Assembly: GCA_963675755.2 (NCBI GenBank)
Contig: CAXXMD010000002.1
Location: 2,016,001-2,080,000, forward strand
Reading direction: 5' to 3'
From: a bacterium
GTDB lineage: Bacteria > Zhuqueibacterota > Zhuqueibacteria > Residuimicrobiales > Krinioviventaceae
DNA: 64,000 bases
Below the pieces are notes generated by a model, which had not been told where the DNA came from, searched no databases, and was given only the letters and a program-made list of their open reading frames with translations. This document shows, one piece after another, positions 607 to 16,563 of this stretch (the first letter of the stretch is position 1; each line of letters begins with the position of its first letter). Both the position numbers and the translations under genes were made by a program.

Positions 607-1518
607 TCATTTATTGATTTTAAATTGAAAAACATCAGGCCTGTTATAGTGGCCTGCCGCATCAAACATCCTTTTCGATACCGTTATCAAATCAAGATCA
701 ATTTCAGCATAGAGTATTTCTTCTTTTTCTCCAACCGGACCCGCAATGATTTCTCCTTGTGGATTGATGATACAGCTGTTTCCTGCATTAATCCAATCTC
801 TTCCTTCCGGATACAAGGATTTAAAATCATACCGGTCTGGAATATCATCTATTTGCAAAGCCATACAACAGCTAATAACAAACAAACCTCCTTCCCGTGC
901 TATATACTGCATGGCTAAAAGCCAATTATTACTCTTGTCCCATGTTGGTGCAGCTAAAATTTGAGTTCCTGCCTGGTACATTGACATTCTTGCCAACGGC
1001 ATAAAATTCTCCCAACAGATCAAACCACCCAGCCTGGCAAAAGATGTATCAAATGCATGTAAAGTTGAGCCATCTCCCTGGGCCCATATAAGCCGTTCTC
1101 CTCCCGTTGGCATCAATTTCCTATGTTTACCCATGATCTCTCCCTTGTCATCGATAAACAACATTGTATTATAAAGACTTGAATTACTGGATTCGCTGTT
1201 ACGCTCGTTTATCCCCATAACCACATATATACCGGCCTTTTTTGCAGCTTTACAGAGTTGTTCCGTGGAATTGTCCGGAATACTGACAGCATTATTTATC
1301 AATTCCTTGTACAATTCATTTAAAACAGCACCTTTGCTGTTTGGCACAAGCCAAACCCAATCCGGATAACCAGCAATAAATGCTTCGGGAAAAACGATCA
1401 GTTTGGCTCCCTGTTGACCTGCTTTTTCAATAATATCGCATGCTTTATTAACCGTTTCAGTCTTATTCAAAAAAACCGGGGACACTTGGGCGGCTGCCAC
1501 TAGAATCTTTTCGTTCAT
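607..1518 (-). CDS. Carbon-nitrogen hydrolase / nitrilase
   Basis: Catalytic triad motifs FPEAF, HRKLMPT and LICWEN. Start reassigned to ATG 1518 (SD AAAGGAG) from the ORF-track 1620. Confidence 0.92.
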   Translation of the reverse strand: MNEKILVAAAQVSPVFLNKTETVNKACDIIEKAGQQGAKLIVFPEAFIAGYPDWVWLVPNSKGAVLNELYKELINNAVSIPDNSTEQLCKAAKKAGIYVVMGINERNSESSNSSLYNTMLFIDDKGEIMGKHRKLMPTGGERLIWAQGDGSTLHAFDTSFARLGGLICWENFMPLARMSMYQAGTQILAAPTWDKSNNWLLAMQYIAREGGLFVISCCMALQIDDIPDRYDFKSLYPEGRDWINAGNSCIINPQGEIIAGPVGEKEEILYAEIDLDLITVSKRMFDAAGHYNRPDVFQFKINK

Positions 1519-1944
1519 AGAAACTCCTTTTGCAGAGTACAAGAAAACAATTACAATAAAGACAAATTGCAACCGATGCATTACAAACTCCTTATCATTC
1601 AGGTTAAAATGATGAATCATCTGTTTACAATTAAACTGTGCGGATATTTTTATTTTTTAAATTTAAATTATGCTGTTTTGAAGAAAAGAAGATTGAAAGG
1701 AATAAAACAACTTTTAGGAATCAACAAAATGCACTCAAACAGCATCAAACAAAGACCAAAAACATTCAATCCAAGAACTGAATTCAATTCAGGACAGGGT
1801 ATAGTTAACAGCGGCAAATAACAAATTATTCTCACACTATGGATATAATATTAAATAGTTGCAAAATAAGCAGAGTTTAAGATTGAATAATGGATTAACA
1901 AAATGGATTCTACAGGTGCAGTTATTATGGGTTGGAATTTTTGA

Positions 1945-1980: not shown

Positions 1981-2256
1981 TCAGTCCCCATCCACATTGG
2001 CCAGCGGCACTTTGAATTCACCGGCAACGGATTCGATTACGGATTTTACCGCGCTTACGGCGGCATCGTCCAGTTCTGTTCCTGAACGCTCGCTGAGCGG
2101 CTCCAACTCCGCATCCACAACAGGATAAAGCGTTGCAAGTGCAACAGCACCATGCTCGGGTTCACGCTCCATTAATGATTGCAGGAGCGGTTTTAACACC
2201 TGTTCCAATGCCAGTTTAATCACCGGTGCCAGCAAATTCAACAATTGTTCTTTCAT
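1981..2256 (-). CDS. Small helical phage-type protein (lysis-module position)
   Basis: 91 aa with strong SD AAAGGGGAG. Amphipathic N-terminus and a TELDDAAV motif. Last gene of the operon. Confidence 0.6.
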   Translation of the reverse strand: MKEQLLNLLAPVIKLALEQVLKPLLQSLMEREPEHGAVALATLYPVVDAELEPLSERSGTELDDAAVSAVKSVIESVAGEFKVPLANVDGD

Positions 2257-2318
2257 GTGTTCTCCCCTTTACGAGTTGATTAATCACTATGAGGATTCCC
2301 CCCTTGTGAGGTACACCA

Positions 2319-2540
2319 TCATTTTTTATGTACCGACTTTAATCTCGTCAGCATCTGTTTTTCTCTTACCAGCGCGTCACCCCCTTCTTTTAACCGGCCC
2401 CGCTTTTCCCCCAATCCAAAAGTCATCCACACAAAACCGGCTTTGCACAACCAGGGCGATATCGTTTGTCCCGCCCCCGGAATAAAATTCACCGCTCCCC
2501 CCAAGCCCAAAAGCAGCAATCCCGTCAACGTTTTTGGCAA
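2319..2540 (-). CDS. Putative holin-like small membrane protein
   Basis: 73 aa with two hydrophobic segments followed by a basic tail. TTG start with SD AAAGGAGG. Follows the tail genes. Confidence 0.5.
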   Translation of the reverse strand: MPKTLTGLLLLGLGGAVNFIPGAGQTISPWLCKAGFVWMTFGLGEKRGRLKEGGDALVREKQMLTRLKSVHKK

Positions 2541-2556
2541 ATCTCCTCCTTTCTTT

Positions 2557-2940
2557 TTATTGTTCTACAAATTTCAATTCTATATCCCGTTTGGCTTCAT
2601 CCAATCCCCCTGTATAATATTCAGGTATTTCACACGCCATTCTCACAGCAATATTTACAGATTCCCCCTTAACATTGCAATATTGCAACTGCATCAGCTC
2701 GTCGTTACCCGCAAGCTTTGCCAGTTTATCAAACGTTGATCGTCTTGCGGTCCGAATGGAACAAGTATAAACATCATATGCCTGCCCATATCGCAGAATG
2801 AATGGCCTGCGATTCTGCAGCCGTTTCAATGTAAACGGTTGAATGATTCTGACTTTTAGGGACCGTACTTCATCCGAATAAAAAGTTAATGTGACAGATT
2901 CCCCTCCACCGGGTACGGTTATATACAATGCTTCTGTCAT
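2557..2940 (-). CDS. Putative distal-tail/minor tail protein (paralog of 5936-6319)
   Basis: 127 aa; shares the TV..G..T..FY.DEVR pattern with 5936-6319. ATGA overlap with the upstream gene. Confidence 0.55.
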   Translation of the reverse strand: MTEALYITVPGGGESVTLTFYSDEVRSLKVRIIQPFTLKRLQNRRPFILRYGQAYDVYTCSIRTARRSTFDKLAKLAGNDELMQLQYCNVKGESVNIAVRMACEIPEYYTGGLDEAKRDIELKFVEQ

Positions 2941-5936
2941 ATTGATATCTCCTGCTCATGGGTAATATCATATCCCTTCAACAGCACTTCAATCCCATCA
3001 GTAAATGATATCTGTTTACCGGTAACCCGAATATATCGATCCAATTCAGGTTTTTCACTCTGTACATGCAGCACATCACCAATCTCGATGGGGATTCCCT
3101 GCAAGTTCAACCGACACTGAATCACCAGTACCCCAAAAGCCCACATTTCATATAATTCCGAGACCAGCAAAGCAACGGATTCCGATGCAAAATAACCCGG
3201 CAGATCAAGTTGAGCGCTTTGCAGCAAACCGGATTGCAATTGGCTGAAAGGAATATCCGTTGGGCCGGTATATATAGATCTGAAAAAATAGGTATTGTTA
3301 TCATAATCATATCCATAGCGCAATTGCCATGAATTCACCCGTTCCCTAGAACCCATTTCCGTCCCGGGTAATAAATTGGTATCCCCACTTGTATCTACGA
3401 CTGGTGCCTCACAACGACGATGCACAAATAACCGTTCAACACCCCAGTTATCATTATACAAGAATCCATTCAAATGCTGTGCAACACATTCCAATGCCTG
3501 CAAAACAGACATGTCCCGCTCTAACGATAAACTGATATGCAATCCATTATCCTCACACCAGAGATATTCACGATCAAAATTATAATTGGGGTCAGGCAGG
3601 TCCCTTTTTTTGATATAAACATCACTTCCACACGTCAAATCCTCACCAAAAGGATTATTAACAGATACCCGAATACATGGAGGATATGATGCCTGAACAT
3701 CGTTGCCAGAGGCAATAACAAACTCCAGTCCCCCAATTATTAAAATTTCTCCGGTTTGTATTTTCACAGGTGCCGTTACCGCAACATTTATCTCTGTATT
3801 GCCTGCATCAACATCCTCAGCCAACACTCCAATTCGCTTTTGTTCAAAAAAGGATGAAGCCGCAATTAAATGCTGAGGTGTCTCTGCATGTTCACGTAAC
3901 AATTGATAGATAACAGAAACCGGATTAACATCCACCCAGATTCTACCTGTTTTGAATGAAACCTTGTTCCCGCTTCGGGTGGTCCCGTTCCAGGCTGATG
4001 CCAGAATAACAAGCTGATCACCGCCCTGTACCGTATCAAAAGAAAAACCCAGTCTGTAAATCGTCAATCCATCACGTTCCATTATATATGCATATTCACC
4101 ATCCATGGCAATGGCATTGGCATTTCTCAGATAAAAGGGGCCATCCGCTCCACGTATGGTTTCAATCAACCTGGCATTGAATGGATCAGAAATATCAATT
4201 ACACTCAACGCATGATTGATGGAAGACACACTGAACAACCGGTCTCCCTCAATCGTAAACGCCATTCCCGAGCTGTACCAGGGGGAGCCGGCACTGCCAA
4301 ATTCTGTTGCGGTAAAAGGATTTTCAATATCACTGATATCGATCACTAATATTCTACCGTATCGTCCTTTAACAAAGGCATAGTTTCCGGATATTCTCAC
4401 AGAATAGCCGCCTTCGTCAATGGCGAGTGTGGTCACCAGCACCGGATTACCCGGTGCGTCAATATCAATGATCACAAGACGATTATCATGACTTGAAACT
4501 GTCAAAAGATAGTGGTCCGTAATATCAAAATCCCACAAACCCTGCATATAATTTGGTGATCCCATTCCTCCAAATCTTGATAAATATTGAATATTGAACG
4601 GATCATCGACATCGAACACACATACCGTATCTTGTCCCTGCACATATAAAAAATGGCCGTTCAATTTGCATTTCACCGCAAAAAAATCTTCCGGCACTCC
4701 TTCAGTCCCGGCGGTTTTGGTATCAATCAACACAGGATTATAAGGATCTGAAACATAAAAACACTTTAATTTGCCAATAAACGATCCACTGTTGATATCA
4801 ACGTATGCAACATACACATTATTGGATATTTTCTCTACTGCTGCATAAATACAGCTATCAGCAAATGAAATAGATGAACATTGTACAGGACTTGCAGGAT
4901 CACTCACATCCAGAATGACCAGTTTGCCTGTTTCCACAACCGGAGTGAAAACCCAATCCAGATCTTTAACCAGGTCCCATGCAAAACCCATATCATTATC
5001 CGGGCCGTTATACCTCCCGGTCATTCCATAATATCTGTCATAAACACGCCCATCCATTCCGGGCCCGGATAATGTATATTTTGTATTTGTGATAAAATCC
5101 AGCTGCCATTTACCTGGACGGCAGCCCGCTTGTGGGAAAATGGATTCACGCTCCAGATCGCATGATGCGTCATCATTCCAACGGATGCTAGAAGCGCCGG
5201 AATGCTCTCCACTCACGCACAATAATCGTGATGTTTCGTCCGAATCTACACCCACCAGTGCTCTGTCCAGCTTGCTTTTCCGCGAATCTACCAGAACCAT
5301 CCGAATAGCCCCGGCCAAAACTTCGGGCACTTTGAGTATCCGTCCCCGGAACAAAACCATGGGCTGCGCTGCACCCGCAAGATGCAGTCTGACCTGCACC
5401 TCTGTATTCTCTGGCATTTGCGAAAACAGATAGCCTCCCCGGGGCATATAAAAAGCCAGTGGCTCGGCAAGTGTGATCCTGTCCGTATGATTGTCGGCAG
5501 TATAACTCAATATTTCTACAATTTGCTGTTGCACCGAACCATAAAAATAATCTTCACCATACAGTACAATGCGTTCTCCCGATGCGTAGGTTACGCCTTC
5601 CTGATGCTGAATCAAAAGTTCGGAACTCCCGAATTCAGCAGCTTCCGCAACAATACTTTTGGCATGATGAAACGGGCTGGCTGGATTTATGGGTGACAGC
5701 GAGCCATCAGGATCAGCAATCTCTATCTCTACATCCCGCAAAACAGAACGTCCACCCCATTGCGGATCCATATCTCTGCTATTATCAAGAGGACTGATAT
5801 GGACGATACTGTTTTGTCCATCAATAACAATTCCCCTCTCTTCAGGGTCAACCAACAGGTCCAGATAATATTGCTGTCCTGCTGCATTTTCCAGTTCCTG
5901 CTGCCAGTCCAAAGGTAAGGTTTTATAATCCGGCAT
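2937..5936 (-). CDS. Large tail hub/receptor-binding protein with central LVIVD-repeat beta-propeller
   Basis: About 1000 aa. Repeats LVILDVSDPASP, VCVFDVDDPFN, LVIIDIDAPGNP, ILVIDISDIENP and LSVIDISDPFNA. N- and C-terminal regions look like a phage tail hub (LFRGRI; IEIGDVLHV). Start placed at ATG 5936 (TAATG overlap, SD GGAG). Confidence 0.7.
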   Translation of the reverse strand: MPDYKTLPLDWQQELENAAGQQYYLDLLVDPEERGIVIDGQNSIVHISPLDNSRDMDPQWGGRSVLRDVEIEIADPDGSLSPINPASPFHHAKSIVAEAAEFGSSELLIQHQEGVTYASGERIVLYGEDYFYGSVQQQIVEILSYTADNHTDRITLAEPLAFYMPRGGYLFSQMPENTEVQVRLHLAGAAQPMVLFRGRILKVPEVLAGAIRMVLVDSRKSKLDRALVGVDSDETSRLLCVSGEHSGASSIRWNDDASCDLERESIFPQAGCRPGKWQLDFITNTKYTLSGPGMDGRVYDRYYGMTGRYNGPDNDMGFAWDLVKDLDWVFTPVVETGKLVILDVSDPASPVQCSSISFADSCIYAAVEKISNNVYVAYVDINSGSFIGKLKCFYVSDPYNPVLIDTKTAGTEGVPEDFFAVKCKLNGHFLYVQGQDTVCVFDVDDPFNIQYLSRFGGMGSPNYMQGLWDFDITDHYLLTVSSHDNRLVIIDIDAPGNPVLVTTLAIDEGGYSVRISGNYAFVKGRYGRILVIDISDIENPFTATEFGSAGSPWYSSGMAFTIEGDRLFSVSSINHALSVIDISDPFNARLIETIRGADGPFYLRNANAIAMDGEYAYIMERDGLTIYRLGFSFDTVQGGDQLVILASAWNGTTRSGNKVSFKTGRIWVDVNPVSVIYQLLREHAETPQHLIAASSFFEQKRIGVLAEDVDAGNTEINVAVTAPVKIQTGEILIIGGLEFVIASGNDVQASYPPCIRVSVNNPFGEDLTCGSDVYIKKRDLPDPNYNFDREYLWCEDNGLHISLSLERDMSVLQALECVAQHLNGFLYNDNWGVERLFVHRRCEAPVVDTSGDTNLLPGTEMGSRERVNSWQLRYGYDYDNNTYFFRSIYTGPTDIPFSQLQSGLLQSAQLDLPGYFASESVALLVSELYEMWAFGVLVIQCRLNLQGIPIEIGDVLHVQSEKPELDRYIRVTGKQISFTDGIEVLLKGYDITHEQEISI

Positions 5937-6319
5937 TATTCGCACTCCAACAAGGTCAATACAGTTTCTGATTTTGCCGCGGATTGATGCCCAAACAAAA
6001 TCGTTTTTTCAAATTCAGGATACAGAATGCATTTCAGCTCAAGATCAGGATTTTTCCCAACAGCATAATGGACTGTCATCACATCCCTGATTGCCGTCAA
6101 TGTTTGGATACGCTCTGCCGAATCAGCATATATATCACAAATACGCATTTGAAGCGTATTCCATACGCCCCCTTCTGTCTCAATACCTGGGACCGTATTG
6201 CCATTTTCACGGACCTGTTGAAAGCGCAGAGGTTGTTTAATCACATCCCGTACCTCATCCCGATAAAATTGAATGGTATTTTCACCATACGCTACAGTGA
6301 CTGCCACATCCCTGCTCAT
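5936..6319 (-). CDS. Putative distal-tail (Dit/gpM-like) protein
   Basis: 127 aa at the position immediately before the hub gene. ATGA coupling at 6316-6319. Confidence 0.55.
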   Translation of the reverse strand: MSRDVAVTVAYGENTIQFYRDEVRDVIKQPLRFQQVRENGNTVPGIETEGGVWNTLQMRICDIYADSAERIQTLTAIRDVMTVHYAVGKNPDLELKCILYPEFEKTILFGHQSAAKSETVLTLLECE

Positions 6320-6489
6320 GCGAACGGTCCCGCTGGTGGTTCAAAATAGCGTTCACGATATTTTATTCGCTGATAAACCCTGTCATCAATCCAGCTTTCA
6401 CGGTCTCTGTTTTGTTTATGCTCCAGAGAAGAGGTAACACCAGGAACAATTCTGGAATCCAATCCCAATGGCTGCTTTATTACGTTCAT
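6316..6489 (-). CDS. 57-aa ORF in the tape-measure slot (unannotated)
   Basis: Hand translation MNVIKQPLGLDSRIVPGVTSSLEHKQNRDRESWIDDRVYQRIKYRERYFEPPAGPFA*. SD CAGGGGG; ATGA overlaps at both ends. Confidence 0.7.
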   Translation of the reverse strand: MNVIKQPLGLDSRIVPGVTSSLEHKQNRDRESWIDDRVYQRIKYRERYFEPPAGPFA

Positions 6490-7295
6490 ATTTCCCCCTG
6501 TTCAGCAATAAATTTTCCATATACAACACGTATATCTGCATTTACCAGTGGAGCAGTATCGAACGCCAGTGCCTGCCCGTTCAACTCTATTCCGTCAGTC
6601 ACATATCTGCCCCAAGTACCTCCCGGCGTTGTTATTACCAGAGCCGCAATCGCCGGATGCGGCCAGCTTTCCGGAATATCAATATCCGGATTCAACAATT
6701 CAACTGGTTGCGTGGATAATTGAAATACCGTGGATGTACCATCCCCCGTAAACCGGTCCGTTCGCAATTCCACTCCCGCGGGAATCCGAAACGGCATCCG
6801 GGTTGATGTAAAGGGAATATCCATAAAATTACATCCATCTACAACCAACGTCCCGGGACTCTCGAGTACAATTTCCGGAAAAACGAAACTGAACTTGTGC
6901 TGCAACGTCTCTGTTCGATATACAGCCTCTAATGCTCCGGCTAGTCGATTATTCATAGTCATGGGAAACAGGAAGGGACCACTGGCAGCCAGCTCCAATC
7001 CAAGCGCAGCATCGAGCAGCTCACCCGCGCAGCTTGACAACATCCGGATTGCACCCCGGTATGCGTAATCAAACCCCAGTGGATGCGGTTCTTCATCATC
7101 CACTCCAAACACCTGCCTGACCTCTGCGGCGGCATAGGGATCCGTTTTCACACGCTCAACACCCTGCAAGTACAAGGGAGCAACGGGTATTGCCGAATCT
7201 CCAAGAGCCGGATGAAATCGAAACAATACATCTTTGCCCTGTAAACATTGTTGCGGTCCTGGTGCTGGTAACCGTTCAGTTAATGACATAATCAT
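6486..7295 (-). CDS. Putative major tail tube protein with C-terminal decoration domain
   Basis: Position after the tail terminator, beta-rich sequence, and a C-terminal FTGDGTSTVFQLS motif typical of virion Ig-like domains. Confidence 0.55.
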   Translation of the reverse strand: MIMSLTERLPAPGPQQCLQGKDVLFRFHPALGDSAIPVAPLYLQGVERVKTDPYAAAEVRQVFGVDDEEPHPLGFDYAYRGAIRMLSSCAGELLDAALGLELAASGPFLFPMTMNNRLAGALEAVYRTETLQHKFSFVFPEIVLESPGTLVVDGCNFMDIPFTSTRMPFRIPAGVELRTDRFTGDGTSTVFQLSTQPVELLNPDIDIPESWPHPAIAALVITTPGGTWGRYVTDGIELNGQALAFDTAPLVNADIRVVYGKFIAEQGEI

Positions 7296-7789
7296 TCCCC
7301 CTGCCTGACATTCAACTCAATTCTGAATTTACTGTGGATCATATCCCGATTTGCATTATGTTCACACACAGGCCCCTCAGATCCTTTTATCTGGATCCCG
7401 TGTGTTGTCAATGTTTGTGCACTGTGTAATACACCTTTTAGCTCCACATTGAATGTCCGTGTATGCAAATCAAAAGGATTGGTAAAACAGGATAAAAGCT
7501 CGCTCAAAATCACCTGGTGCTCATCAATCCCCCCGCTTGCTGGATCATTCCACACGCCAATTGTCAACTCGAACAACAATAACGGTTCGCAGCCCAGATA
7601 ATTTTCTTGTCCGTTTAAAACCGGTGTATTTACATAAATAACCGGATGTTCTACATGGTCCTGTATATTTTTATGATTATAACCGGGTTCAATTCTACAT
7701 CCCCTCAATACAGCCGAATCCAGCGCAACTGCATTTAGCAGTGCCATAAAACACGATTGTATTTCTGTCAAAACTCTGTCTCTGTTCAT
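7292..7789 (-). CDS. Putative tail terminator/completion protein
   Basis: Synteny and an HPVIYV...FELTIGVW pattern. Start reassigned to ATG 7789 (SD CAGGAG). Confidence 0.5.
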   Translation of the reverse strand: MNRDRVLTEIQSCFMALLNAVALDSAVLRGCRIEPGYNHKNIQDHVEHPVIYVNTPVLNGQENYLGCEPLLLFELTIGVWNDPASGGIDEHQVILSELLSCFTNPFDLHTRTFNVELKGVLHSAQTLTTHGIQIKGSEGPVCEHNANRDMIHSKFRIELNVRQGE

Positions 7790-7793
7790 ATGC

Positions 7794-8258
7794 CTACTCC
7801 TGACCCTGTATTTGACGAAGAATTGCAAACTGGGCCACTTTTTCATCCGATGACAAAATCTCACTTTGCTTTAACCGATACCGGCAGCCATTGTACACAA
7901 AATAATCATTCAACAGGTCCAGTGTATTTAAATCCAGAAAAGTACCATCCTCTTCATTCACCGTTCCAATGATCATCATGTCCCGGGCAGTTACATTGCC
8001 CACAACCTGAAACTGTACAAAGGTTTTCACCATGGTATAGTTGAATACAAAGGCCTTTATGGACAATTCAGAAACGACAGTCCCTGTCCGCCCAACACCC
8101 TCGCAATCCGTATCAACAGGATGATTGCGATGCCATTCAGGCGAGTATACCCCGGTCTTTTCCGCACAGGGACAATTACTGCCGCCCCCATGTCGGACCA
8201 GCGTTAATCCGGTACCATAACGCAACACATCCTGACAAAATAATTGATGGTCAGTCAT
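7794..8258 (-). CDS. Putative head-closure/neck protein with CPC...CxGxG motif
   Basis: Synteny after the head-tail adaptor. Motifs NCPC, DCEGVG and DYFVYNGCRYRL. Start at ATG 8258 overlaps the upstream stop. Confidence 0.55.
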   Translation of the reverse strand: MTDHQLFCQDVLRYGTGLTLVRHGGGSNCPCAEKTGVYSPEWHRNHPVDTDCEGVGRTGTVVSELSIKAFVFNYTMVKTFVQFQVVGNVTARDMMIIGTVNEEDGTFLDLNTLDLLNDYFVYNGCRYRLKQSEILSSDEKVAQFAILRQIQGQE

Positions 8259-8655
8259 ATTTGCTTCCCCCAAACGATCCGCTCCACCACGGCCCATGTT
8301 CTGAACATCCCAGCAAATTCAGATATTGCTGCCATTCCTCCATCAGCGTTTGACAGATTTGTGCCTTTTCCTGTGCGGAAACCGGTTTGATCTCTACAGG
8401 ACCGCTTTTACTGCCTCTGACCGGAGCCGAACTGACAACCTTGTGCGCAACAAAAGCAACCTGTGCCGCTTTTGCCAGCACCAGCTCTGATGCAGTCAAT
8501 CCTGCCAAGTCCAATCCGTTTTTATCCAGAACCAATTCCAACCAGGCATCCCCAGCTGGAATAAATGCGGTACCCGCAAGTTCCTGATCCGACACTTCCA
8601 GCTCCGTCATTGTCCGTAACCTTGCTCTTACATCCGCTGCTGTAATATTTGCCAT
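8251..8655 (-). CDS. Head-tail connector/adaptor (gp6/gp15-like)
   Basis: 134 aa, helical, N-terminal ITAADVRARL and later SGPVEI motif, directly after the major capsid gene. Confidence 0.65.
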   Translation of the reverse strand: MANITAADVRARLRTMTELEVSDQELAGTAFIPAGDAWLELVLDKNGLDLAGLTASELVLAKAAQVAFVAHKVVSSAPVRGSKSGPVEIKPVSAQEKAQICQTLMEEWQQYLNLLGCSEHGPWWSGSFGGSKYD

Positions 8656-8669
8656 ATTTTCACCTGTTT

Positions 8670-8697
8670 AAAAACAGGGGCGATTGACCGCCCCTGT
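8670..8697 (-). terminator. Intrinsic terminator after the major capsid gene
   Basis: acaggggcg-attgac-cgcccctgt followed by a U5 tract on the minus strand. Confidence 0.7.
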
Positions 8698-8709
8698 AAA
8701 ATGAAAGAA

Positions 8710-9795
8710 CTAACTGTGCTCAACCTCAAGACATCCAATAGCCTGTGGATCGATCACATCAAATGCACTTCGTTTCGATACCACAGTCCTTACCTGCTGC
8801 TTGGCGATGATTCGCTCGGTTTCGGTCAGATTCATGCTGTCATTGGTCACATACCCAATTGCATGTGCGGTATCGACTCCCACCAGTTTGTCCGAAGGAA
8901 CAATGTCCCGGTCCCATTCCACACCCCGTGGCAGAATCATACCGGTTTGTCCCCATTGCGCAACCGGATTCTGCATATCAGACAATGCATCCCTGAAATC
9001 GATCATATTGCTCTTGCGGCCCACAAACGCGTTCAAAGCATAAGGCTGCGGCAATGTGGATGCAAAGGTAATGATATCCTTTTTTACAATACTTCCGCTG
9101 GTAGCCGTCTGGCAGGTCTGCTCAGCTTTTAAACCATTATTGTTACCATCGCCGTTCAGCAGCGCATTCACAAGCGCGTCCGACTCATCAAGACCAATCT
9201 GTTTCCCGATACGTTGCAATGCCACCGCGTAAATATTGATTGGCGTTGCATAGATCACTTCATAATCGAACAAAATATTGCGACCAAATTTCGCCAGCGA
9301 GATGCTCTGCTTGCCGGCTTTGATCTGGGTCTGTGGAAACTCTGCGCCCCTCGCCGTTTTTTTCAACTCTCGTGATGCCTGGCTGTCTTCAAGATACAAT
9401 TTGCGGAAATCCAGCCCTGTAATAACCGAAGTTACCGCGACGAACTCGGGTACAATCGATGCCGACAACGCCCCCGCGTAAACGCGATTTGAAATAAATT
9501 CCGGAAACAGTACGCTGGTATCCGCACTCTGGAAAAATTTTTCCACCCGGTCAGTATGCATGCCAAACGCTTTGATATCGTGCGCCTGCAATGCCATCTC
9601 AAATGCCGACAACGGCGGGTCTTCTCCTTTGCGAAGGTATGAGAGCCGCTTTAATTCCTTTTCATAGTTGGCAAGTCCCCAATACTCGCTTGGCTGCTCA
9701 CCCTTTTCTACGCGGTACTCTTCAAGCCATTCACCAAAGGATTTACCCCGCCGTGCGGCTTCATCGTACATCCCGATTTCCAGTTTAAATGCCAT
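8710..9795 (-). CDS. Major capsid protein (HK97 fold)
   Basis: About 361 aa with VEKFFQS..SVLFPEFI, RGAEFP, KFGR...FDYE and LLNGDGNNN patterns, in canonical head-gene order. Start placed at ATG 9795 (SD GGGGAG). Confidence 0.85.
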   Translation of the reverse strand: MAFKLEIGMYDEAARRGKSFGEWLEEYRVEKGEQPSEYWGLANYEKELKRLSYLRKGEDPPLSAFEMALQAHDIKAFGMHTDRVEKFFQSADTSVLFPEFISNRVYAGALSASIVPEFVAVTSVITGLDFRKLYLEDSQASRELKKTARGAEFPQTQIKAGKQSISLAKFGRNILFDYEVIYATPINIYAVALQRIGKQIGLDESDALVNALLNGDGNNNGLKAEQTCQTATSGSIVKKDIITFASTLPQPYALNAFVGRKSNMIDFRDALSDMQNPVAQWGQTGMILPRGVEWDRDIVPSDKLVGVDTAHAIGYVTNDSMNLTETERIIAKQQVRTVVSKRSAFDVIDPQAIGCLEVEHS

Positions 9796-9820
9796 GTAAA
9801 TTCTCCCCAATTTGATTTAA

Positions 9821-10270
9821 TTAAAACAAAACATCCACAGTTAACGTGTCCTGATGTTTGGCAACAATGGCTCCCCATCCGCCGGTACCGCCATCCGCCA
9901 TATACGTATAGTCATCTCCGGTAATCGCTACTGCGTCTTTCAAGCCAACAAGTCCTGAATATTTCAGGTTTTTAACCAGAACAGGTGTATGATGACCACC
10001 CACATCATCTGTGTAATGGAACATTCTCACACCCAGCAGATACCCAAATTCATTGTCTTTTTCGCAGGTAATGATCTCACCATCCGCAACATCGCCGCTT
10101 GCAGGACTCGTAACTTCGTAATTGTTCAACCAGGTCAGTTTTACCAGTCTGCCCTCTACATTTTCATTGTTTGCCATCAGAGCGGTAATCTCGTCCTTAA
10201 AGGTGCTGTCGGGCACACAGCTAAGCTCTAAAAAGTTTCCGGTGTCTCCCCCGCCTATTCCTCTCATCAT
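9821..10270 (-). CDS. Putative capsid decoration/cement protein
   Basis: 149 aa, beta-rich, between protease and capsid genes. SD GAGGAG. Confidence 0.55.
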   Translation of the reverse strand: MMRGIGGGDTGNFLELSCVPDSTFKDEITALMANNENVEGRLVKLTWLNNYEVTSPASGDVADGEIITCEKDNEFGYLLGVRMFHYTDDVGGHHTPVLVKNLKYSGLVGLKDAVAITGDDYTYMADGGTGGWGAIVAKHQDTLTVDVLF

Positions 10271-10288
10271 GTTCCTCCTTGTTTAAAA

Positions 10289-11461
10289 TTAGGATTGTAT
10301 GCTGACTGGTGCCCGAAAAGACCGACTATGCTTTTGGGCCAAATCAGTATCGTTTTGTTTAAACTCCCGCAAATCCTCTGTCAATATCTGTTGATGAGGA
10401 TGTTTTTCATCAAATGCTTTTCTGGAATCCGATACGAGTATCTTTAGCTCCTCCAGAGAAAGCAATTCCAGATTTTGTTTCTCTGCTTCAATACAATCGG
10501 GATTGTCTTTAATCTCCCCCGCAAGACAACCGAATTTAACCGCCTCATTGACCAGCAATTGTCTTTCAGGATCTTTCATTTGTGCACCCTTATCCGGTGT
10601 TCTTTCTGCATCTCTCTTTGCAGCGATTGATTTTCGTGTCCGTGCACCATACTGTGCTCCCAGAAACACATGCGAGCCTTCAAGCGCTTCGGCTTGCCGG
10701 TTTTCTGTGTTACGGTATTCCCACCACAAGATCTTGTCCCCATTACCCGACTTTACAGGTGCCAGTTCCGGAGCACGGAAACCAATACTCATGTCTGAAA
10801 TGATCCCCGAATCGATTTTACGGATTTTCTCAACATCATCCGCCAGCAGATAATAGCTGGCAACCAGCCAATACAAACCATTGTCCTTTTCCGAAATCTG
10901 TTTGTACTGTTCCTTCAGATCTGCACTGCAATGCGGTCCCGCAAGGTTCATCATTTCATCGATGCCAACCTTTTGCAATCGCGATTTGAAATAACGCCCT
11001 TCACCGGTTCCTTCCCAGTCATGCCCGGTCAACACCGCCTTGCCAATAATGGTTTTCTCAAAGGATTGTAATACATCCTTGCTGAACCGTTCCCCGTCCC
11101 GGTCTACAACATTGTGACACAGCCAGGCTTCGTAAACGCGAAAATCTTTGCGATCAAAGGATGACGCGTTTACCATCAGCTTGCACATTGCATCCCAATC
11201 CTCATCACCAATCTCTACCGATTTGGTATGCACACTGAATTGTTTTTGAATACCAGCCAGCCTGTCAAAAGATTTCACCCGGCTCAACCGGTCAAAACGC
11301 TGTTCACAATCCGCCCAGCTCCCATATGCTTTGGCAGGAAACCTCACTTCGGTCAGCCCTGTGTCGGGATGTTTACGACAGTCCAGCAATCCCGCCGGGA
11401 TCTGTTCCGTCTCATCCAAAACACCATAATAATACAACCTGCTTTTTCTTAGAAATTGCAT
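10289..11461 (-). CDS. Prohead protease (HK97/S78-like) fused to a C-terminal scaffold
   Basis: Motifs VDRDGERFS, GHDW, IDSGIISDMSIGF and EALEGSHVFLGAQ, plus a helical C-terminus. SD GAGGGG. Confidence 0.85.
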   Translation of the reverse strand: MQFLRKSRLYYYGVLDETEQIPAGLLDCRKHPDTGLTEVRFPAKAYGSWADCEQRFDRLSRVKSFDRLAGIQKQFSVHTKSVEIGDEDWDAMCKLMVNASSFDRKDFRVYEAWLCHNVVDRDGERFSKDVLQSFEKTIIGKAVLTGHDWEGTGEGRYFKSRLQKVGIDEMMNLAGPHCSADLKEQYKQISEKDNGLYWLVASYYLLADDVEKIRKIDSGIISDMSIGFRAPELAPVKSGNGDKILWWEYRNTENRQAEALEGSHVFLGAQYGARTRKSIAAKRDAERTPDKGAQMKDPERQLLVNEAVKFGCLAGEIKDNPDCIEAEKQNLELLSLEELKILVSDSRKAFDEKHPHQQILTEDLREFKQNDTDLAQKHSRSFRAPVSIQS

Positions 11462-11479
11462 ATCCCCTCTTTTTATTTA

Positions 11480-11743
11480 TTAAAAATTTGCTAAATCACT
11501 TTTCATGCTAAAACAATTTTCAATGAATTGGAGTGCATCGCCTTTATGCGCTTGACCGCCTACTGGCGGTATGCGGCGAGTCGCAGACTCGCTAAAATTC
11601 ACACTTTTTCTCACCTTTCCCTTGACGCCTTCTACACCCATCTCTTTGAATCGCTGTTTTCCATCATTACAATGGACTTTGCCAATTCTCTCCAATCGCC
11701 CGGATTTATGGTTTCTCGGATTAATTACTTTTTGATTTTGCAT
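11480..11743 (-). CDS. Hypothetical basic protein between portal and protease
   Basis: 87 aa ORF with SD AAGGGG that fills the gap in the operon. No recognisable motif. Confidence 0.45.
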   Translation of the reverse strand: MQNQKVINPRNHKSGRLERIGKVHCNDGKQRFKEMGVEGVKGKVRKSVNFSESATRRIPPVGGQAHKGDALQFIENCFSMKSDLANF

Positions 11744-11782
11744 AAAACATCCCCTTGATTTAATTGATTATCCACTGGACGG

Positions 11783-13144
11783 TTACGAATTCAACAGTAT
11801 CTGCCTTGCTTCTTTTACAGCACCATTTGCCTTACTGTCATTGGCAATCCGGTTCAATACCTCCTCTGCACGCGTCACCCCCTGTAACGTTTTCCCCGGA
11901 AAAAAGGGACCGCTTCGCACCAGATGTACAAACTCTTCATCATCAATCATCCCCATATCATACATCCGCTCAAAAGCGCACAGTTCTTTATCCAGCGCTT
12001 GCGCGTTCAAGAGTCTGGCACGGGCCTGCTCGGTCTTGTCCATTAAATTGACTTCTCGCCATTCCAGGTTCCATTGTGCCCCCGCCTCACCTTGTAATAC
12101 CAGAAACGTATTGATCACCCGTCTCAAAATCGGTTCAACCTTGGTCCGGTACGCGTTAATATTCGCCACAATCATATCATTCTGGTTATTGCTCATACGC
12201 TCGGTAGTGGTCCATTTGTACAAGCCAAACATAAATGGCGGCAGCCCGGTCTTGGTAATGATCTCTTCCTGCATTACATGTACCGGTACCTGTAGATTCA
12301 GCACAGGTTCCTGTCCCCCCAATACCTGTACATCAATCCCGGCGCCTTCCGGCACTGCCGCTGCAACATCCCGCACATGCCCCTGTTTGCGGTCCTGAAA
12401 AACACGGGTAATATCGCTTTGCAATCCTTCTGCTGCCTGTTTAACCCGATTAAAATCGCTGCCCCTTCCTCCGCTAACTTTGACCAGAAATGTAGGGTCC
12501 CCAACCCGCCATACCTGGTTCTCAATGGCCTGCTGTATGCGCAAAAAAATCTTGACCACAAAGGGCAGCGAGTAAAACAGACTGTACCCCTGCGGGTGCC
12601 CGTCACGCTGGTCAAAACACAGATAATAGATAAATTCCGGATCATCAAACGGCAGAATATTCAACTCGGAATCCGTCAACTGTCCCAGTTTCAACGTCCC
12701 GTCACGCTCCACAAAACGAAAACTATTGGCGCGCGCAATTTTCAATCGGTCCACACCATTATAATCCGTGTTCGGCACCAATTCTCCAAACCCCATCCCT
12801 TTGGCTAATGCGGAATCACAAATCTGGTCCACCCAGGTATTCAGTCCCCGGTTAAAATGATTAACCTTGACATCTCCCTTGAATGTATTCAGCAGTTTTT
12901 CGATACGTGGATTCGGTGAAGATAGCCGAAAATCCCCAATCAACCGAACCAGTTTGATCACCGCCACATCCAGTATTGGTACAGCTTCTCGCATTAGATC
13001 GTATAAATCCATATTGAATTGCAACGGTTGGTAACCCCTCAGCGCAGTCGCAAAAGGCCCCTCCCATGCGTCACGTGTTTGCGCCCGACTGATCCTGACC
13101 TGCTGTGTATCCCCACCAAACCATACTTTAAACAGATTTTTCAT
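11783..13144 (-). CDS. Phage portal protein
   Basis: 453 aa with LYDLMREAVPILDVAVIKLVRL, GMGFGELV, HPQGYSL and IITKTGLPPFMFG patterns. First gene of the head module; SD GAGGGGAG. Confidence 0.82.
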   Translation of the reverse strand: MKNLFKVWFGGDTQQVRISRAQTRDAWEGPFATALRGYQPLQFNMDLYDLMREAVPILDVAVIKLVRLIGDFRLSSPNPRIEKLLNTFKGDVKVNHFNRGLNTWVDQICDSALAKGMGFGELVPNTDYNGVDRLKIARANSFRFVERDGTLKLGQLTDSELNILPFDDPEFIYYLCFDQRDGHPQGYSLFYSLPFVVKIFLRIQQAIENQVWRVGDPTFLVKVSGGRGSDFNRVKQAAEGLQSDITRVFQDRKQGHVRDVAAAVPEGAGIDVQVLGGQEPVLNLQVPVHVMQEEIITKTGLPPFMFGLYKWTTTERMSNNQNDMIVANINAYRTKVEPILRRVINTFLVLQGEAGAQWNLEWREVNLMDKTEQARARLLNAQALDKELCAFERMYDMGMIDDEEFVHLVRSGPFFPGKTLQGVTRAEEVLNRIANDSKANGAVKEARQILLNS

Positions 13145-13248
13145 TTCATCTCCCCTCTGTAAATCACAACCAAAAGATAAACGAAAATCCTGAAAATCAA
13201 AGCAACATTGGGTAACTTACACAACGCAGAAACAAAAAAAAGCTCTTA

Positions 13249-13695
13249 TCCTACGGGCGGACCTATGTGTCTGCACCCATCTCTGCCCCTTCGTAAGGGC
13301 GGACCTGTGTGTCCGCCCCCATCTCTGCCCCTTCGTAAGGACGGACCTGTGTGTCTGCACCCATCTCTGCCACATCGTACGAGCGGACCTGCGTGTCCGC
13401 CCCCATCTCTGCCCCTTCGTAAGGACGGACCTGTGTGTCCGCCCCCAGCTCTGCCCCATCGTAAGGGCGGACCTGTGTGTCTGCCTCCATCTCTGCCCCT
13501 TCGTAAGGGCGGACCTGTGTGTCCGCTCCCATCTCTGCCCCATCGTAAGGGCGGACCTATGTGTCCGCCCCCAGCTCTGGCCATCGTAAGGACGGACCTG
13601 TGTGTCCGCTCCCATCTCTGCCCCTTCGTAAGGGCGGACCTGTGTGTCCGCCTCCATCTCTGCCCCTTCGTAAGGGCGGACCTGTGTGTCCGCCC
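13249..13695. repeat. Tandem array of a 42-bp REP-like hairpin unit (10 full units plus 1 partial)
   Basis: Consensus tcgtaagggcggacctgtgtgtccgcccccatctctgcccct. Units start at 13249, 13291, 13333, 13375, 13417, 13459, 13501, 13543 (41 bp), 13584, 13626 and 13668. Each contains the palindrome GGGCGGAC-N5-GTCCGCCC after GTAA. Confidence 0.95.
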
Positions 13696-13737: not shown

Positions 13738-13800
13738 TTGACAAATGTTCAAAAAATTACTATGTTCATTATAAATGAACATTCAAAAATATTGAACATT
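13738..13800 (+). promoter_or_regulatory. Sigma70 promoter overlapped by a nested palindromic operator (probable AbiEi autorepression site)
   Basis: TTGACA(13738)-N17-TATGTT(13761). Arms aatgttcaa/ttgaacatt (13744-52/13792-800) and atgttcatt/aatgaacat (13762-70/13774-82) share the centre 13772. Confidence 0.75.
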
Positions 13801-14787: not shown

Positions 14788-15595
14788 TCCCGAGATACTG
14801 ACTGTTATCCAACATATTAAATCAATCACAGAAAAAATAAACATACCGTTTTTCATTGTTGGAGCAATTGCAAGGGATTTTATCTTTAAATATTGGCAAA
14901 TTGAATCCCCAAGAATGACTATGGACATTGATATTGCCATCCGTATACCCAATTGGGACCGGTTTCACGAGTTAGAAAAAGCATTCCTGGAATCAGGTTT
15001 TTTTGAAAAGGATAGAGAATCCCAACGGTTTCTCTATGATAATTTTATTGTGGATATAATTCCCTTTGGTGACATTGCACAAAACCAGGTCATCAACTGG
15101 CCACCGGATTTTAATATTGCAATGTCAGTTGTAGGATTTGATCAGGCATGGGACTATTCAAGTATCGTCAGATTAAATAATGATCCTGAACTGGATGTTC
15201 GCATTCCCACACTTCCGGGAATGGCGTTAATGAAACTACTCTCCTGGCATACGGCATACCCTGAACGGAATAAAGATGCAAAGGATTTCTGGTTCATTAT
15301 GAATCATTATGAATTTGCAGGCATTGCGGACAGATTGTATAAAACTGAATTCTCTTTATTTGAAAAAGAAAATTACAATCTTCTGCATGCAGGATATGTT
15401 CTGCTGGGTAAAGATATTGCAGCTATATGTAACAAAGAAACAAAAGCGTTGGTCAAACAAATCCTGGCAGATGAAATCGACCAAAATTCAAGCAACAAAT
15501 TGATATTACAAATGCTTACACCTCAGGATCAATTTGAAAAAATATTCAAGGGGCTTGAAAAATTAAAATACGGGTTTATTAGCCAGATTGCTTAA
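14750..15595 (+). CDS. abiEii: AbiEii/AbiGii-family nucleotidyltransferase toxin
   Basis: IVGAIARD...RMTMDIDIAI nucleotidyltransferase motif, VDIIPFG and KLLSW...RNKDAKD. Overlaps the antitoxin 3' end. Confidence 0.85.
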   Translation: MTSTSFNLSGKIDPEILTVIQHIKSITEKINIPFFIVGAIARDFIFKYWQIESPRMTMDIDIAIRIPNWDRFHELEKAFLESGFFEKDRESQRFLYDNFIVDIIPFGDIAQNQVINWPPDFNIAMSVVGFDQAWDYSSIVRLNNDPELDVRIPTLPGMALMKLLSWHTAYPERNKDAKDFWFIMNHYEFAGIADRLYKTEFSLFEKENYNLLHAGYVLLGKDIAAICNKETKALVKQILADEIDQNSSNKLILQMLTPQDQFEKIFKGLEKLKYGFISQIA

Positions 15596-16401: not shown

Positions 16402-16563
16402 GATTCTTTCTTCTCCCGTTTTCCTGAATAAAATAACATCAAGCCCAAAATAACAAATAAAGCACCATAAATCAACCCTTAACACATATTTATGAATTTT
16501 ACTTGCATTTCTTTACCGCTTGTTTTATTATAAACTGTTGTTGGATTGAAACAGGATTTAATT

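Follow-up and report, generated by a model that had tools for sequence, protein, structure and literature searches.

RcGTA, the type system of the Rhodogtaviriformidae in Alphaproteobacteria, has its terminase within the structural cluster, possesses a tape measure and is controlled by the cellular regulators CtrA, quorum sensing and GafA. PBSX of Bacillus is a single contiguous locus of myovirus type, with a complete contractile tail, and serves chiefly as a killer particle. Capsid-forming PICI satellites have an integrase, att sites and packaging genes of their own; they are mobile and borrow the tails of helper phages. Gene transfer agents (GTAs) of the RcGTA type are inherited vertically, diverge together with their hosts and evolve more slowly than their phage homologues, according to the ICTV viriform proposal (PMC9662315), and PBSX is described as a GTA-like element that packages 13.4 kb (PMC12946183). 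Here, we describe a structural cluster found in a stretch of 64,000 nucleotides (the window) of the bacterial genome G000, and a second locus in the same genome. This phage-derived two-locus set, kept intact while an uncultured bacterial lineage diverged, looks like a new, independently evolved GTA-like particle.

The structural cluster encodes a portal, an HK97-type capsid protein, connector-sized proteins, a tail-tube protein and tail-tip proteins (Table 1). The co-oriented, translationally coupled ORFs with Shine-Dalgarno motifs described in an earlier note on this DNA were recovered at the same positions: ATGA overlaps join g8/g9 (7292), g9/g10 (6486), g10/g11 (6316) and g12/g13 (2937), the g11/g12 junction is TAATG, and GGAG/GGGG-type motifs precede most starts. 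Of these ORFs, g2 is doubtful, and the listed starts of g8, of the capsid gene and perhaps of g7 lie too far upstream. In G001, which belongs to another species of the same genus (g1), all genes except g2 are intact; g2 contains a stop and a 116-118-nt insertion there and has no match in G017 of the sister genus g5. The capsid gene probably starts at the ATG at 9795 (361 aa) and g8 probably at the ATG at 7789 (165 aa); alignments of g8 to its relatives, which are 159-163 aa long, start near residue 21-26. Because of the TAATG, the ATG at 5936 is the most likely start of g12 (999 aa).

The flanks also agree with the previous description, with a nitrilase gene on one side and a repeat array followed by AbiEi/AbiEii on the other. 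A hairpin at 1948-1970 comes after g15, and the homology of this cluster end with G001 begins at 1948. The array is no part of the particle system; its core occurs 19 times in the G000 genome, just two copies are present at the same place in G001, and short-read assemblies break at it. Pfam and PHROGs scans of the window ORFs (24 + 34) revealed no terminase, integrase, repressor, replication or lysin family, no tRNA was found in the window, and repeat searches found no att-type direct repeat flanking the cluster, which bears out the absences reported before. A likeness to a structural cluster of Clostridia, suggested in the note, gained no support; the relatives found were confined to this bacterial family and to a few viral or metagenome contigs.

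Table 1. Features of the structural cluster, its surroundings, the second locus and the related prophage. Coordinates without prefix refer to the window; dN/dS values are for G000/G001.
Feature	Location	Strand	Assignment and matches	Conservation
CN_hydrolase gene	607-1620		cluster boundary; E 1.4e-54	
Structural cluster	1981-13144	minus	15 co-oriented ORFs, portal to g15	
g15, 91 aa	1981-2256	minus	acidic protein, last gene of the operon	98% identity in G001, 67% in G017
g14, 73 aa	2319-2540	minus	small basic protein, hydrophobic N-terminus	97% identity in G001, 64% in G017
g13, 127 aa	2557-2940	minus	tail-tip protein	dN/dS 0.365
g12	2937-5936	minus	large tail-tip protein; PF08309 E 2.5e-13	
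g11, 127 aa	5936-6319	minus	tail-tip protein right after tape measure	
g10, 57 aa	6316-6489	minus	tape measure remnant ("mini tape measure")	
g9, 269 aa	6486-7295	minus	tail tube protein with C-terminal Ig-like domain	
g8	7292-7864	minus	connector/tail-terminator position	dN/dS 0.186
g7, 167 aa (or 154 aa from ATG at 8258)	7794-8297	minus	connector position	dN/dS 0.156
g6, 134 aa	8251-8655	minus	head-tail connector position	dN/dS 0.125
HK97-fold major capsid protein	8710-9810	minus	phrog_3922 E 1.8e-53, PF05065 E 1.6e-12, TIGR01554 E 1.1e-9	dN/dS 0.017
g4, 149 aa	9821-10270	minus	head-module protein	95% identity in G001, 59-63% in sister genus; dN/dS 0.09
g3, 390 aa	10289-11461	minus	prohead protease/scaffold position; phrog_16951 (unknown function) E 6.2e-9	
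g2, 87-aa ORF	11480-11743	minus	doubtful gene	55.6% identity in G001; dN/dS 0.63
Portal protein, 453 aa	11783-13144	minus	phrog_30703 E 1.6e-66	98% identity in G001; dN/dS 0.028
Conserved element	13186-13224	minus	~60 nt upstream of portal ATG	
42-nt hairpin repeats (REP-like)	13255-13695		10.5 tandem copies	
AbiEi	13738-14787		cluster boundary, beyond portal	
AbiEii	14750-15595		cluster boundary, beyond portal	
Packaging/lysis/repressor locus	G000:C2:1880428-1885398		~133 kb from structural cluster	
TerL	second locus		phrog_2 E 1.3e-30; tblastn E 1e-71 to annotated terminase	dN/dS 0.068
TerS	second locus		TerS-like HTH, phrog_645 E 6.9e-11	dN/dS 0.041
Lysozyme	second locus		Phage_lysozyme E 2.8e-17	
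YqaJ	second locus		lambda-exonuclease-type nuclease, E 2.3e-33	dN/dS 0.057
CI-like repressor	second locus		Peptidase_S24 E 7.7e-22; self-cleaving S24 domain, GDSM and Ala-Gly sites	dN/dS 0.009
Complete temperate prophage	G001:C1, ~2842000-2892700		~50 kb	

Among the head genes, g3 is kept in all relatives, and a language-model search gave a lead, to be taken as a lead only, to Peptidase_S78 clusters (score 0.90-0.91). No family match was found for g4 in Pfam and PHROGs or for g6, the order of which is kept in all relatives, true phages included. The element CTGTGTAAnTTACCCAAnnTTGCTT, which includes the near-palindrome TGnGTAAnTTACnCA, is likely the promoter or operator of the structural operon. 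It forms an invariant block in an alignment of four genomes (A2), is also located upstream of the portal gene in two metagenome contigs and occurs only once in the G000 genome. Four phage-type relatives lack it; the element was seen only in versions without TerL.

The idea of a short tail, put forward in the note, received unexpected support from the tape-measure gene, which is cut to a remnant. The g10 protein and its orthologues (57-90 aa) have a C-terminal motif, W..VD..I.PRIKF.ER...EPF, in common with the final 26-30 residues of the 951-aa protein at the tape-measure position of the G001 prophage, with E values of 5e-6, 6e-5 and 0.005 that derive from a very small search space. The prophage gene next after this 951-aa protein is 25% identical to g11 (E 3e-14), and g13 shows 27% matches to two prophage genes lying after the g12 homologue. 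In the AlphaFold model of g9 (pLDDT 71.9), residues ~1-175 align moderately (VIA Z 7.2-9.2) to the tube proteins of AFP, PVC, phiCD508, P74-26 and SPP1 and to lambda gpV, and residues 176-262 align to Ig-like domains. The g12 protein comprises an N-terminal domain, a central 7/8-bladed LVIVD β-propeller and an unmodelled C-terminal third. Its model matches β-propellers in Foldseek, its N-terminal domain gives a lead, and only that, to phage baseplate-hub clusters (score 0.87), and just 4-5 full-length relatives exist among 5.8 billion proteins. We know of no precedent for a tail built with a 57-aa tape measure and without chaperone genes, and the tail of the particle may therefore not form at all.

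The second locus was located by using the TerL of the related prophage as query. It contains an S24 CI-like repressor gene, which is divergent from an operon encoding YqaJ, a 115-aa protein, TerS, TerL, a 73-aa protein and a lysozyme. The stand-alone terminase and endolysin genes that the note had proposed to search for are thus present elsewhere in the genome, beside a CI-like repressor. The TerL is 57.6% identical to the prophage TerL over the full 499-aa query and is the sole strong TerL in G000, which likewise holds only one portal and one HK97 capsid. Since no other locus in this genome is homologous to ORFs of related phages, G000 has neither a resident helper nor a second copy. The G000 genome lacks an integrase, replication genes, a minor head protein, tail chaperones and most of the tape measure, and no integrase, att repeat, replication or excision gene was found at either locus.

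It is hardly credible that the two loci belong to a viable temperate phage, with the split being an assembly artefact or being undone by rearrangement on induction. All genomes are metagenome-assembled, and G014, also of genus g5, shows an assembly conflict at a repeat inside the cluster, which would be consistent with an artefact. However, TerL and portal are separated both in G000, on a contig of 2.45 Mb, and in G001, whose 6.5-Mb chromosome is a single contig, by ~133 kb and ~98 kb of collinear host genes, respectively. In G000, G001 and G014, the genes after TerL are the 73-aa gene and lysozyme rather than the portal, and no joint between the two parts was present in contigs from public runs. 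The phage genes missing from G000 argue against a viable phage as well.

Between G000 and G001, both loci occupy the same chromosomal places with collinear flanks on both sides, and the DNA is 89-90% identical within the cluster and 87-89% identical beyond it. Purifying selection acts on all structural genes but g2, as dN/dS is 0.017-0.365 for the other 14 of the 15 genes (0.13-0.22 for tail genes, g13 excepted) compared with 0.023 for the host RpoB. The dS values of 0.10-0.69 are host-like (RpoB 0.353), with g10 as an outlier (1.5 over 51 codons). In the sister genus, G017 contains 14 of the 15 genes in the same order without a TerL adjoining the portal, and G014 contains the 7-gene packaging module, also with gene order kept (52-73% identity). 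Two metagenome contigs (L080, L081) share the structural order, again with no TerL upstream. In an RpoB tree covering 14 of the family's 19 genomes, genera g1 and g5 are sisters (support 100/99). The domesticated portals form one clade (98/99), as do the domesticated capsids (90/97); the portal topology agrees with RpoB, and the capsid tree is congruent, with G014 unresolved. Branch lengths are 0.003-0.2 for the domesticated versions vs 0.16-1.3 for phage relatives, one very-long-branch outlier set aside. The fixed locus, congruent trees, low dN/dS and stand-alone TerS/TerL and lysozyme favour the view of the note that this is a host-maintained particle rather than a viable prophage.

Several observations count against a GTA-like reading. 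The sample consists of five metagenome-assembled genomes and two metagenome contigs. No copy of the cluster turned up in G005 (sister of G014; 96% complete) and no TerL module in G017 (95% complete, 180 contigs), and the flanking genes differ among G017, G014 and genus g1. As flanks are not conserved beyond the genus, vertical descent there rests on distribution, tree congruence and the shared derived layout, not on synteny. The G+C content is 46.2% in the structural cluster and 47.9% in the packaging locus against 39.5% in the genome, and windows of 11 kb reach the G+C content of the structural cluster in only 0.09% of cases; GC3 stands out less (0.45 and 0.53 at the two loci vs 0.364, sd 0.077).

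True phages of this lineage, namely the G001 prophage and the IMG/VR contigs L076 and L079, have homologous TerS, TerL, portal, g3, g4, capsid, g6-g9 and g11-g13 in the same order (22-62% identity). Unlike the cluster, they have contiguous TerS-TerL-portal genes, a minor head protein and long branches. The prophage additionally encodes an integrase, Erf, Gam, SSB, a primosomal protein, a methylase and HNH, and has two genes in the tail-chaperone position, the tape measure of 951 aa and a distal gene of 753 aa. In G000 the site of insertion is empty, and the prophage is thus strain-specific. A recent deletion derivative, which would have contradicted the note, is not what the relatives indicate, as they are only 43-59% identical in portal, capsid and TerL and lie on separate long branches. 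Since the capsid is 59% identical to that of the ~50-kb prophage, it may be full-size, and the classical criterion of a head too small for its own genes may thus not apply.

A helper-dependent, still mobile satellite or satellite pair of the capsid-forming PICI type is quite improbable. Such an origin could account for a structural cluster without terminase and a packaging locus without structural genes, as well as for the variable flanks. In addition, G004 has three full-length and three truncated related portals, none adjoining a TerL of this type, two of these copies are near-identical, and one copy lies beside transposases. Yet G000 and G001 each have a single copy, at a fixed, collinear place and with dS values like those of the host, the trees track the host tree, G000 contains no helper of this lineage, and mobility genes are missing from both loci.

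Possible but rather unlikely is an old defective prophage, pieces of which were selected for something besides gene transfer, such as a head-bearing killer particle, a lysis/DNA-release device or interference with same-lineage phages by capturing terminase, capsid or tail parts. The evidence for selection and vertical descent fits this equally well, related temperate phages infect the host group (the G001 prophage and the IMG/VR contigs), and defence/toxin-antitoxin genes immediately precede the portal (AbiE in G000 and G001; MNT and SatD in G014). Moreover, with the tape measure nearly gone, the tail may be non-functional for delivery. In contrast, constraint is among the strongest in TerS, TerL, portal and capsid (dN/dS 0.017-0.068), which points to DNA-filled heads and not to a tail-only or protein-only device. 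PADLOC models match none of 22 proteins, save generic HTH matches on TerS, and the make-up corresponds to no known defence system.

On balance, we consider it likelier than not that the split two-locus set is a domesticated, non-autonomous, GTA-like DNA-packaging particle with a very short tail, probably SOS-induced and independent of known GTA families. The best reading is that the cluster represents the head-and-tail half of a domesticated siphophage (a GTA-like "viriform"), inherited vertically by the host lineage, with the second locus as its partner half. The host-maintained status is well supported, while the GTA label is one that we infer. Four sequence-testable GTA criteria were taken from the ICTV viriform proposal (PMC9662315); the system shows three of them, and the packaging criterion in part. 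Upon DNA damage or another signal, the repressor would be cleaved in some cells and the packaging/lysis operon turned on, as would be the portal operon through its own conserved upstream element. Proheads would be built from portal, g3/g4 and the HK97-type capsid protein and filled by TerS/TerL with DNA, which would have to be mostly host DNA because the loci lie 98-133 kb apart and no replication/excision function is present. A very short tail would then be joined, consisting of the tube g9 measured by g10 and the tip proteins g11-g13, with the β-propeller protein g12 as likely receptor binder, and the lysozyme would set the particles free. The identities of the genes, their layout in two loci and its conservation, the purifying selection, the divergence along with the host and the lost autonomy genes are observed in the sequences; of the scheme itself, we infer how the particle is induced and formed, what DNA it holds, how long its tail is and that it transfers DNA.

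Compared with known systems, the cluster resembles capsid-forming PICIs in having head and connector genes outside any complete phage genome, but none of their integrase, att or mobility features was found at the two loci. PBSX is a defective prophage under repressor control that is induced by the SOS response, packages host DNA and lyses the cell, and the present system would behave similarly; a CI/S24 repressor by late genes is likewise present. Different from PBSX, it is split over two loci, its tube is of siphovirus type and its tape measure is vestigial. RcGTA-type systems differ in that no sequence kinship is detectable beyond shared phage folds and in that the present host belongs to a different phylum-level lineage, the FCB group. 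Furthermore, the terminase here is outside the head-tail cluster, beside the lysozyme and CI-like S24 repressor, and the tape measure is cut down to 57-90 aa. Nonetheless, the present system shares with the RcGTA type a siphophage-derived head-tail cluster of similar size, further genes (e.g., for lysis) at other loci and the lack of integrase/replication genes, and also vertical inheritance, host co-divergence and slower evolution than phage homologues, as described in the viriform proposal (PMC9662315).

The structural cluster at window positions 1981-13144 is made up of 15 co-oriented ORFs on the minus strand, designated g1 (portal) to g15. The earlier note had described 15 co-oriented ORFs; these are indeed present, but g2 is a doubtful gene and some start sites needed correction. 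The real starts of g8 and of the capsid gene lie downstream of the longest-ORF starts, and g12 begins with the ATG at 5936. The overlaps quoted there (ATGA at 7292, 6486, 6316 and 2937; TAATG at 5934-5938) were all recovered, as were the boundaries, a CN_hydrolase (nitrilase) gene on one side and a repeat array followed by AbiEi/AbiEii on the other. Comparison of 58 window ORFs with Pfam and of 24 with PHROGs agrees with the reported lack of a terminase, integrase, repressor, replication gene or lysin; no att-like repeat flanks the cluster, as had also been claimed, and the window contains no tRNA. Portal and HK97 capsid are each encoded once in the genome of the window (G000).

All six TerL-less versions of the cluster share a 24-nt element with a near-palindrome, located about 60 nt before the ATG of the portal gene; the element is missing in four phage-type relatives. 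It occurs once in the G000 genome, where no second site was found at up to 4 mismatches. No SOS-box-like regulon was detected in this genome, and two loose palindrome matches both fall within coding regions.

The array upstream of the portal is built from a 42-nt unit with a hairpin, GGCGGACCTGTGTGTCCGCC, of which G001, another species of the same genus, has just two copies at that place. Dispersed copies are mostly found on contig C2. The unit is REP-like, and short-read assemblies break at it; an assignment of the array to CRISPR or att was rejected in favour of a dispersed hairpin repeat. Toxin-antitoxin or defence genes are found directly upstream of the portal, namely AbiEi/AbiEii in G000 and G001, and a different pair in G014, a genome of the sister genus. 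The window also contains two gamma-glutamyltranspeptidase paralogues, and the first of these, together with a DUF4919 gene, is missing from the corresponding place in G001.

Features of the structural cluster, the packaging module and related loci
Feature	Location	Strand	Match or remark
CN_hydrolase gene	flank on one side of cluster		
Major capsid protein, HK97-type	window 8710-9810	-	phrog_3922, E 1.8e-53; PF05065; TIGR01554
Portal	window 11783-13144	-	phrog_30703, E 1.6e-66
42-nt tandem array, 10.5 copies	window 13255-13695, other flank		upstream of portal
AbiEi/AbiEii	window 13738-15595		follows array
Gamma-glutamyltranspeptidase, first	window 16546-18246		
Gamma-glutamyltranspeptidase, second	window 50354-52054		
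Dispersed 42-nt unit copies	G000:C2 1764295, 1766328, 1771132, 1845614, 2154576, 2154834, 2177008; C3:973733		
G014 portal upstream genes	L013 14340-15480		MNT-type nucleotidyltransferase; SatD
1098-aa T9SS cargo protein (host)	L022:99-3395; G000:C2:1874098-1877394		PF03495 (binary toxin B / PA-type calcium-binding domain), E 2e-12; Laminin_G_3; flanks packaging module
T9SS-secreted LVIVD beta-propeller protein (host)	L022:3830-6304; G000:C2:1877829-1880303		adjoins packaging module
CI-like repressor	packaging module	opposite to rest of module	HTH_3; Peptidase_S24, E 7.7e-22; GDSM active site; Ala-Gly sites
CI/YqaJ intergenic region	L022 10531-10713; also L027, L028		divergent promoter region
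YqaJ / lambda-exonuclease nuclease	packaging module, gene 1	operon strand	E 2.3e-33
115-aa protein	packaging module, after YqaJ		
Small-terminase-like HTH protein (TerS)	packaging module, after 115-aa gene		
TerL	G000:C2:1881260-1882732, after TerS		full-length
73-aa basic protein	packaging module, after TerL		
Phage_lysozyme	packaging module, last, after 73-aa gene		E 2.8e-17
Weak terminase-family match	G000:C3:597566-597856		phrog_2, E 1e-6
G001 prophage	G001:C1 ~2842000-2892700 (L031, L018, L032)		integrase, Erf, Gam, SSB, primosomal protein, methylase, HNH
G001 prophage, late genes			TerL directly before portal, minor head protein, 951-aa tape measure
G001 prophage, distal genes			g11-g13 homologues, 753-aa distal gene
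G001 prophage insertion-site flanks in G000	G000:C2:718874-732353		
Inverted repeat copies	L081 12088-12377 and 17687-17972; also G014 contigs C4, C78		

The earlier note had suggested that stand-alone TerL and endolysin genes be sought in the rest of the genome, and both are present in G000, together in one compact module. The query was the TerL that adjoins the portal of a complete prophage in G001, and the G000 protein, the only strong TerL in this genome, is 57.6% identical to it. The module is flanked by T9SS cargo genes and a purple acid phosphatase gene. No match to Pfam PF03237 (terminase) or PF10145 (tape measure) was obtained in the G000 genome; these are weak blanks, as Pfam also missed the real TerL. 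A weak terminase-family match on contig C3 sits in a 650-aa open frame with one in-frame TAG. The divergent promoter region between the repressor and YqaJ genes is conserved between the genera. TTGAC occurs there together with a TAnnTTTG box of the Bacteroidota -7 type, and GTTAA/TTAAC half-sites in this region could be repressor operators.

Both loci occupy the same chromosomal places in G001, which is a single 6.5-Mb contig, and they are separated by about 133 kb in G000 and 98 kb in G001. The structural cluster lies in a stretch of about 50 kb that is collinear between the two species, and DNA identity is 87-90% both within the cluster and beyond it. The packaging module also has the same flanks in both species; the search for the cluster at the same locus in a relative was positive for both loci. 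In the sister genus (genus g5, a label separate from the gene names), G017 contains 14 of the 15 structural genes in conserved order and lacks a TerL upstream of the portal, and G014 contains the seven-gene packaging module, also in conserved order and with 52-73% identity. The structural gene order is repeated in two metagenome contigs (L080 and L081). Flanks differ among G017, G014 and the window's genus (genus g1). A three-locus reading, based on a solitary portal beside curli genes in G014, was withdrawn, since one metagenome contig matches both G014 pieces with 100% identity and connects portal-g2 straight to g3-g12 at a repeat. Inverted repeat copies of about 230-290 nt (80-82% identical) flank g3-g9 in the G014-type population, and the G014 assembly and the independent, otherwise 100% identical contig have conflicting joins at this repeat. 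Contigs from four public runs contained the cluster in two studies and no joints of interest, and no RNA data were found among seven public runs.

The earlier note had named dN/dS as a check. Comparison of G000 with G001 by NG86 revealed purifying selection on every gene except g2, for which dN/dS was 0.63: portal 0.028, capsid 0.017, TerL 0.068, TerS 0.041, repressor 0.009, YqaJ 0.057 and the remaining genes 0.09-0.37. The dS values were 0.10-0.69, with g10 as an outlier (1.5 over 51 codons); the RpoB reference had a dS of 0.353 and a dN/dS of 0.023. Because dS is so high between these species, neutral decay should have broken the approximately 16 kb many times over. Between G014 and G017, dN/dS was 0.04-0.28. 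The G+C content of both loci is 46-48% vs 39.5% for the genome, and their GC3 values are 0.45 and 0.53 vs 0.364 (sd 0.077).

Among 61 related genomes the portal was found in five, all of which belong to the family of the window (G000 and 4 of the 18 other members), and in none of 42 genomes from ten other families. Of the 19 family genomes, five, one of them G000, had capsid matches and four had TerL matches, of which that in G002 is distant and partial. The system is present in four of the five genomes of the clade formed by both genera and, in this form, in none of the 14 other family genomes; portal, capsid and TerL were all unfound in G005, a sister-genus genome, and a search of G017 did not find the TerL module. 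The RpoB tree covers 14 of the 19 members of the family, five being left out for a partial, broken or unfound rpoB; in this tree genus g5 is the sister of genus g1 with support of 100/99. Domesticated portals (98/99) and capsids (90/97) are each monophyletic. The comparison with the species tree proposed in the earlier note gave a portal topology equal to that of RpoB and a compatible capsid tree in which G014 is unresolved; this co-divergence rests on 4-5 taxa from a small set of genomes that are all metagenome-assembled. Domesticated branches measure 0.003-0.2 vs 0.16-1.3 for phage relatives, one very-long-branch outlier aside.

The model of g9 (pLDDT 71.9) has a tail-tube domain followed by an Ig-like C-terminal domain. 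Its tube domain matches the tubes of AFP, PVC, phiCD508, P74-26, SPP1 and lambda with VIA Z values of 7.2-9.2, which are moderate, and nearly every top structural match to residues 1-175 is a tube-family or related tail protein; the sole match in a word-based protein search was the G001 orthologue. In g10 and its orthologues (G001, G017, L080, L081; 57-90 aa), a C-terminal motif W..VD..I.PRIKF.ER...EPF is found, and a helical, Glu/Leu-rich protein of 951 aa in the tape-measure position of the related prophage ends in the same motif. On the basis of this common motif, g10 appears to be a tape-measure remnant after loss of about 880 residues. With roughly 1.5 Å of tail for each tape-measure residue as a rule, any tail that is built is predicted to have only a few tube rings. 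The two tail-chaperone-position genes before the tape measure are missing from the domesticated cluster. Language-model searches gave a weak lead from g3 to S78 prohead proteases and a lead, but only a lead, from the N-terminal domain of g12 to phage baseplate hubs. The centre of g12 is a confident 7/8-bladed LVIVD beta-propeller, for which the fold search returned generic beta-propellers only; it resembles host T9SS surface proteins with 23-33% identity. The host propeller protein beside the packaging module shares about 24% identity over 283-348 aa with the central propeller of the g12 family. Domains may have been exchanged between host surface proteins and g12 (window 2937-5936), a likely receptor binder.

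The G001 prophage that provided the TerL query is a complete temperate element of about 50 kb, a second and distantly related copy whose portal is 43% and whose capsid is 59% identical. In G000 the flanks of its insertion site are separated by about 13 kb, and no homologue of its phage ORFs occurs in this interval. TerS, TerL and portal are contiguous in two IMG/VR phage contigs (L076 and L079). Gene content and order point to derivation of the window element from such a phage: autonomy genes were lost, the terminase was separated from the portal, the lysozyme moved behind TerL and the tape measure was almost wholly deleted. The losses include the integrase and replication genes as well as the tail chaperones and the minor head protein, and the upstream element is a gain. 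Both genera share this derived state, so these events predate their split. The best matches among GenBank phages are 30% for the capsid and 35% for TerL, and the element therefore appears unrelated in sequence to named phages. The outgroup genome G004 contains three full and three truncated (243-aa ORF) portals with 45-51% identity (L015, L016, L017, L019-L021), and two of its head modules, from portal to tube, are near-identical duplicates. All of these portals lack a neighbouring TerL of this type, and beside one copy are transposases and a TerL fragment from a different family; they could be satellites or decaying copies.

Several element classes were considered. A viable temperate prophage would form one contiguous unit with integrase/att, a replication or recombination module, terminase next to portal, and a complete set of tail genes; the element does not have this form, in contrast to the complete prophage of G001. 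A satellite of the PICI or cf-PICI type would carry integrase and att, move between sites and depend on a resident or infecting helper; there is no integrase/att, the locus is fixed in two species, and no helper of this lineage resides in G000, in which no further locus homologous to ORFs of related phages was found. Dependence on an infecting helper phage is possible. A tailocin would be a tail-only particle, but this element encodes capsid, portal and terminase, and all three are under strong constraint; the earlier exclusion of tailocins and cf-PICIs was upheld. A search of PADLOC-DB 2.0 matched 0 of 22 proteins, apart from weak HTH matches of TerS. The element probably works like a GTA or a PBSX-type domesticated particle. 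More tentatively, and with somewhat less than even chances, it is an independently domesticated GTA of a new viriform family, split into a repressor-packaging-lysis locus and a head-tail locus. It would then be triggered through the self-cleaving CI-type repressor, and the loss of about 880 tape-measure residues would have left only a stub of the tail.

Few independently domesticated GTAs are known, and questions persist about how they arose and how widely they occur. If the GTA reading is true, GTAs would for the first time extend beyond Pseudomonadota, Spirochaetota, Desulfobacterota and Archaea, to an uncultured FCB-group (KSB1-like) lineage, and the element would serve as a natural experiment on the control of tail length by the tape measure. 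With the domesticated form in the lineage and a complete related prophage in a sister species, the steps of domestication are directly readable, and the genes provide concrete target sequences for particle-DNA and metatranscriptome data from these habitats. A literature search listed no paper linking GTAs with KSB1 or this bacterial group.

In the definition of GTAs as viriforms, six features are listed: phage-derived particle proteins, an endogenised genome that often occupies several loci, mostly vertical inheritance, own genes that cannot all be packaged, packaging of mostly random host DNA, and delivery to other cells (PMC9662315). Here the particle proteins derive from tailed phages (portal, HK97 capsid, TerL, TerS, tube fold, lysozyme), endogenisation is complete (two loci; integrase, att and replication genes absent), and shared loci, host-like dS and trees of 4-5 taxa agree with vertical inheritance and co-diversification. 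The distance of 98-133 kb should exclude packaging of both loci in one particle, and the head may have phage-sized capacity, given the 59% identity between its capsid protein and the one encoded by the approximately 50-kb prophage. The architecture is distinctive: terminase and lysozyme are grouped with a CI-type repressor, apart from the head-tail operon, and only a vestige of the tape measure is left.
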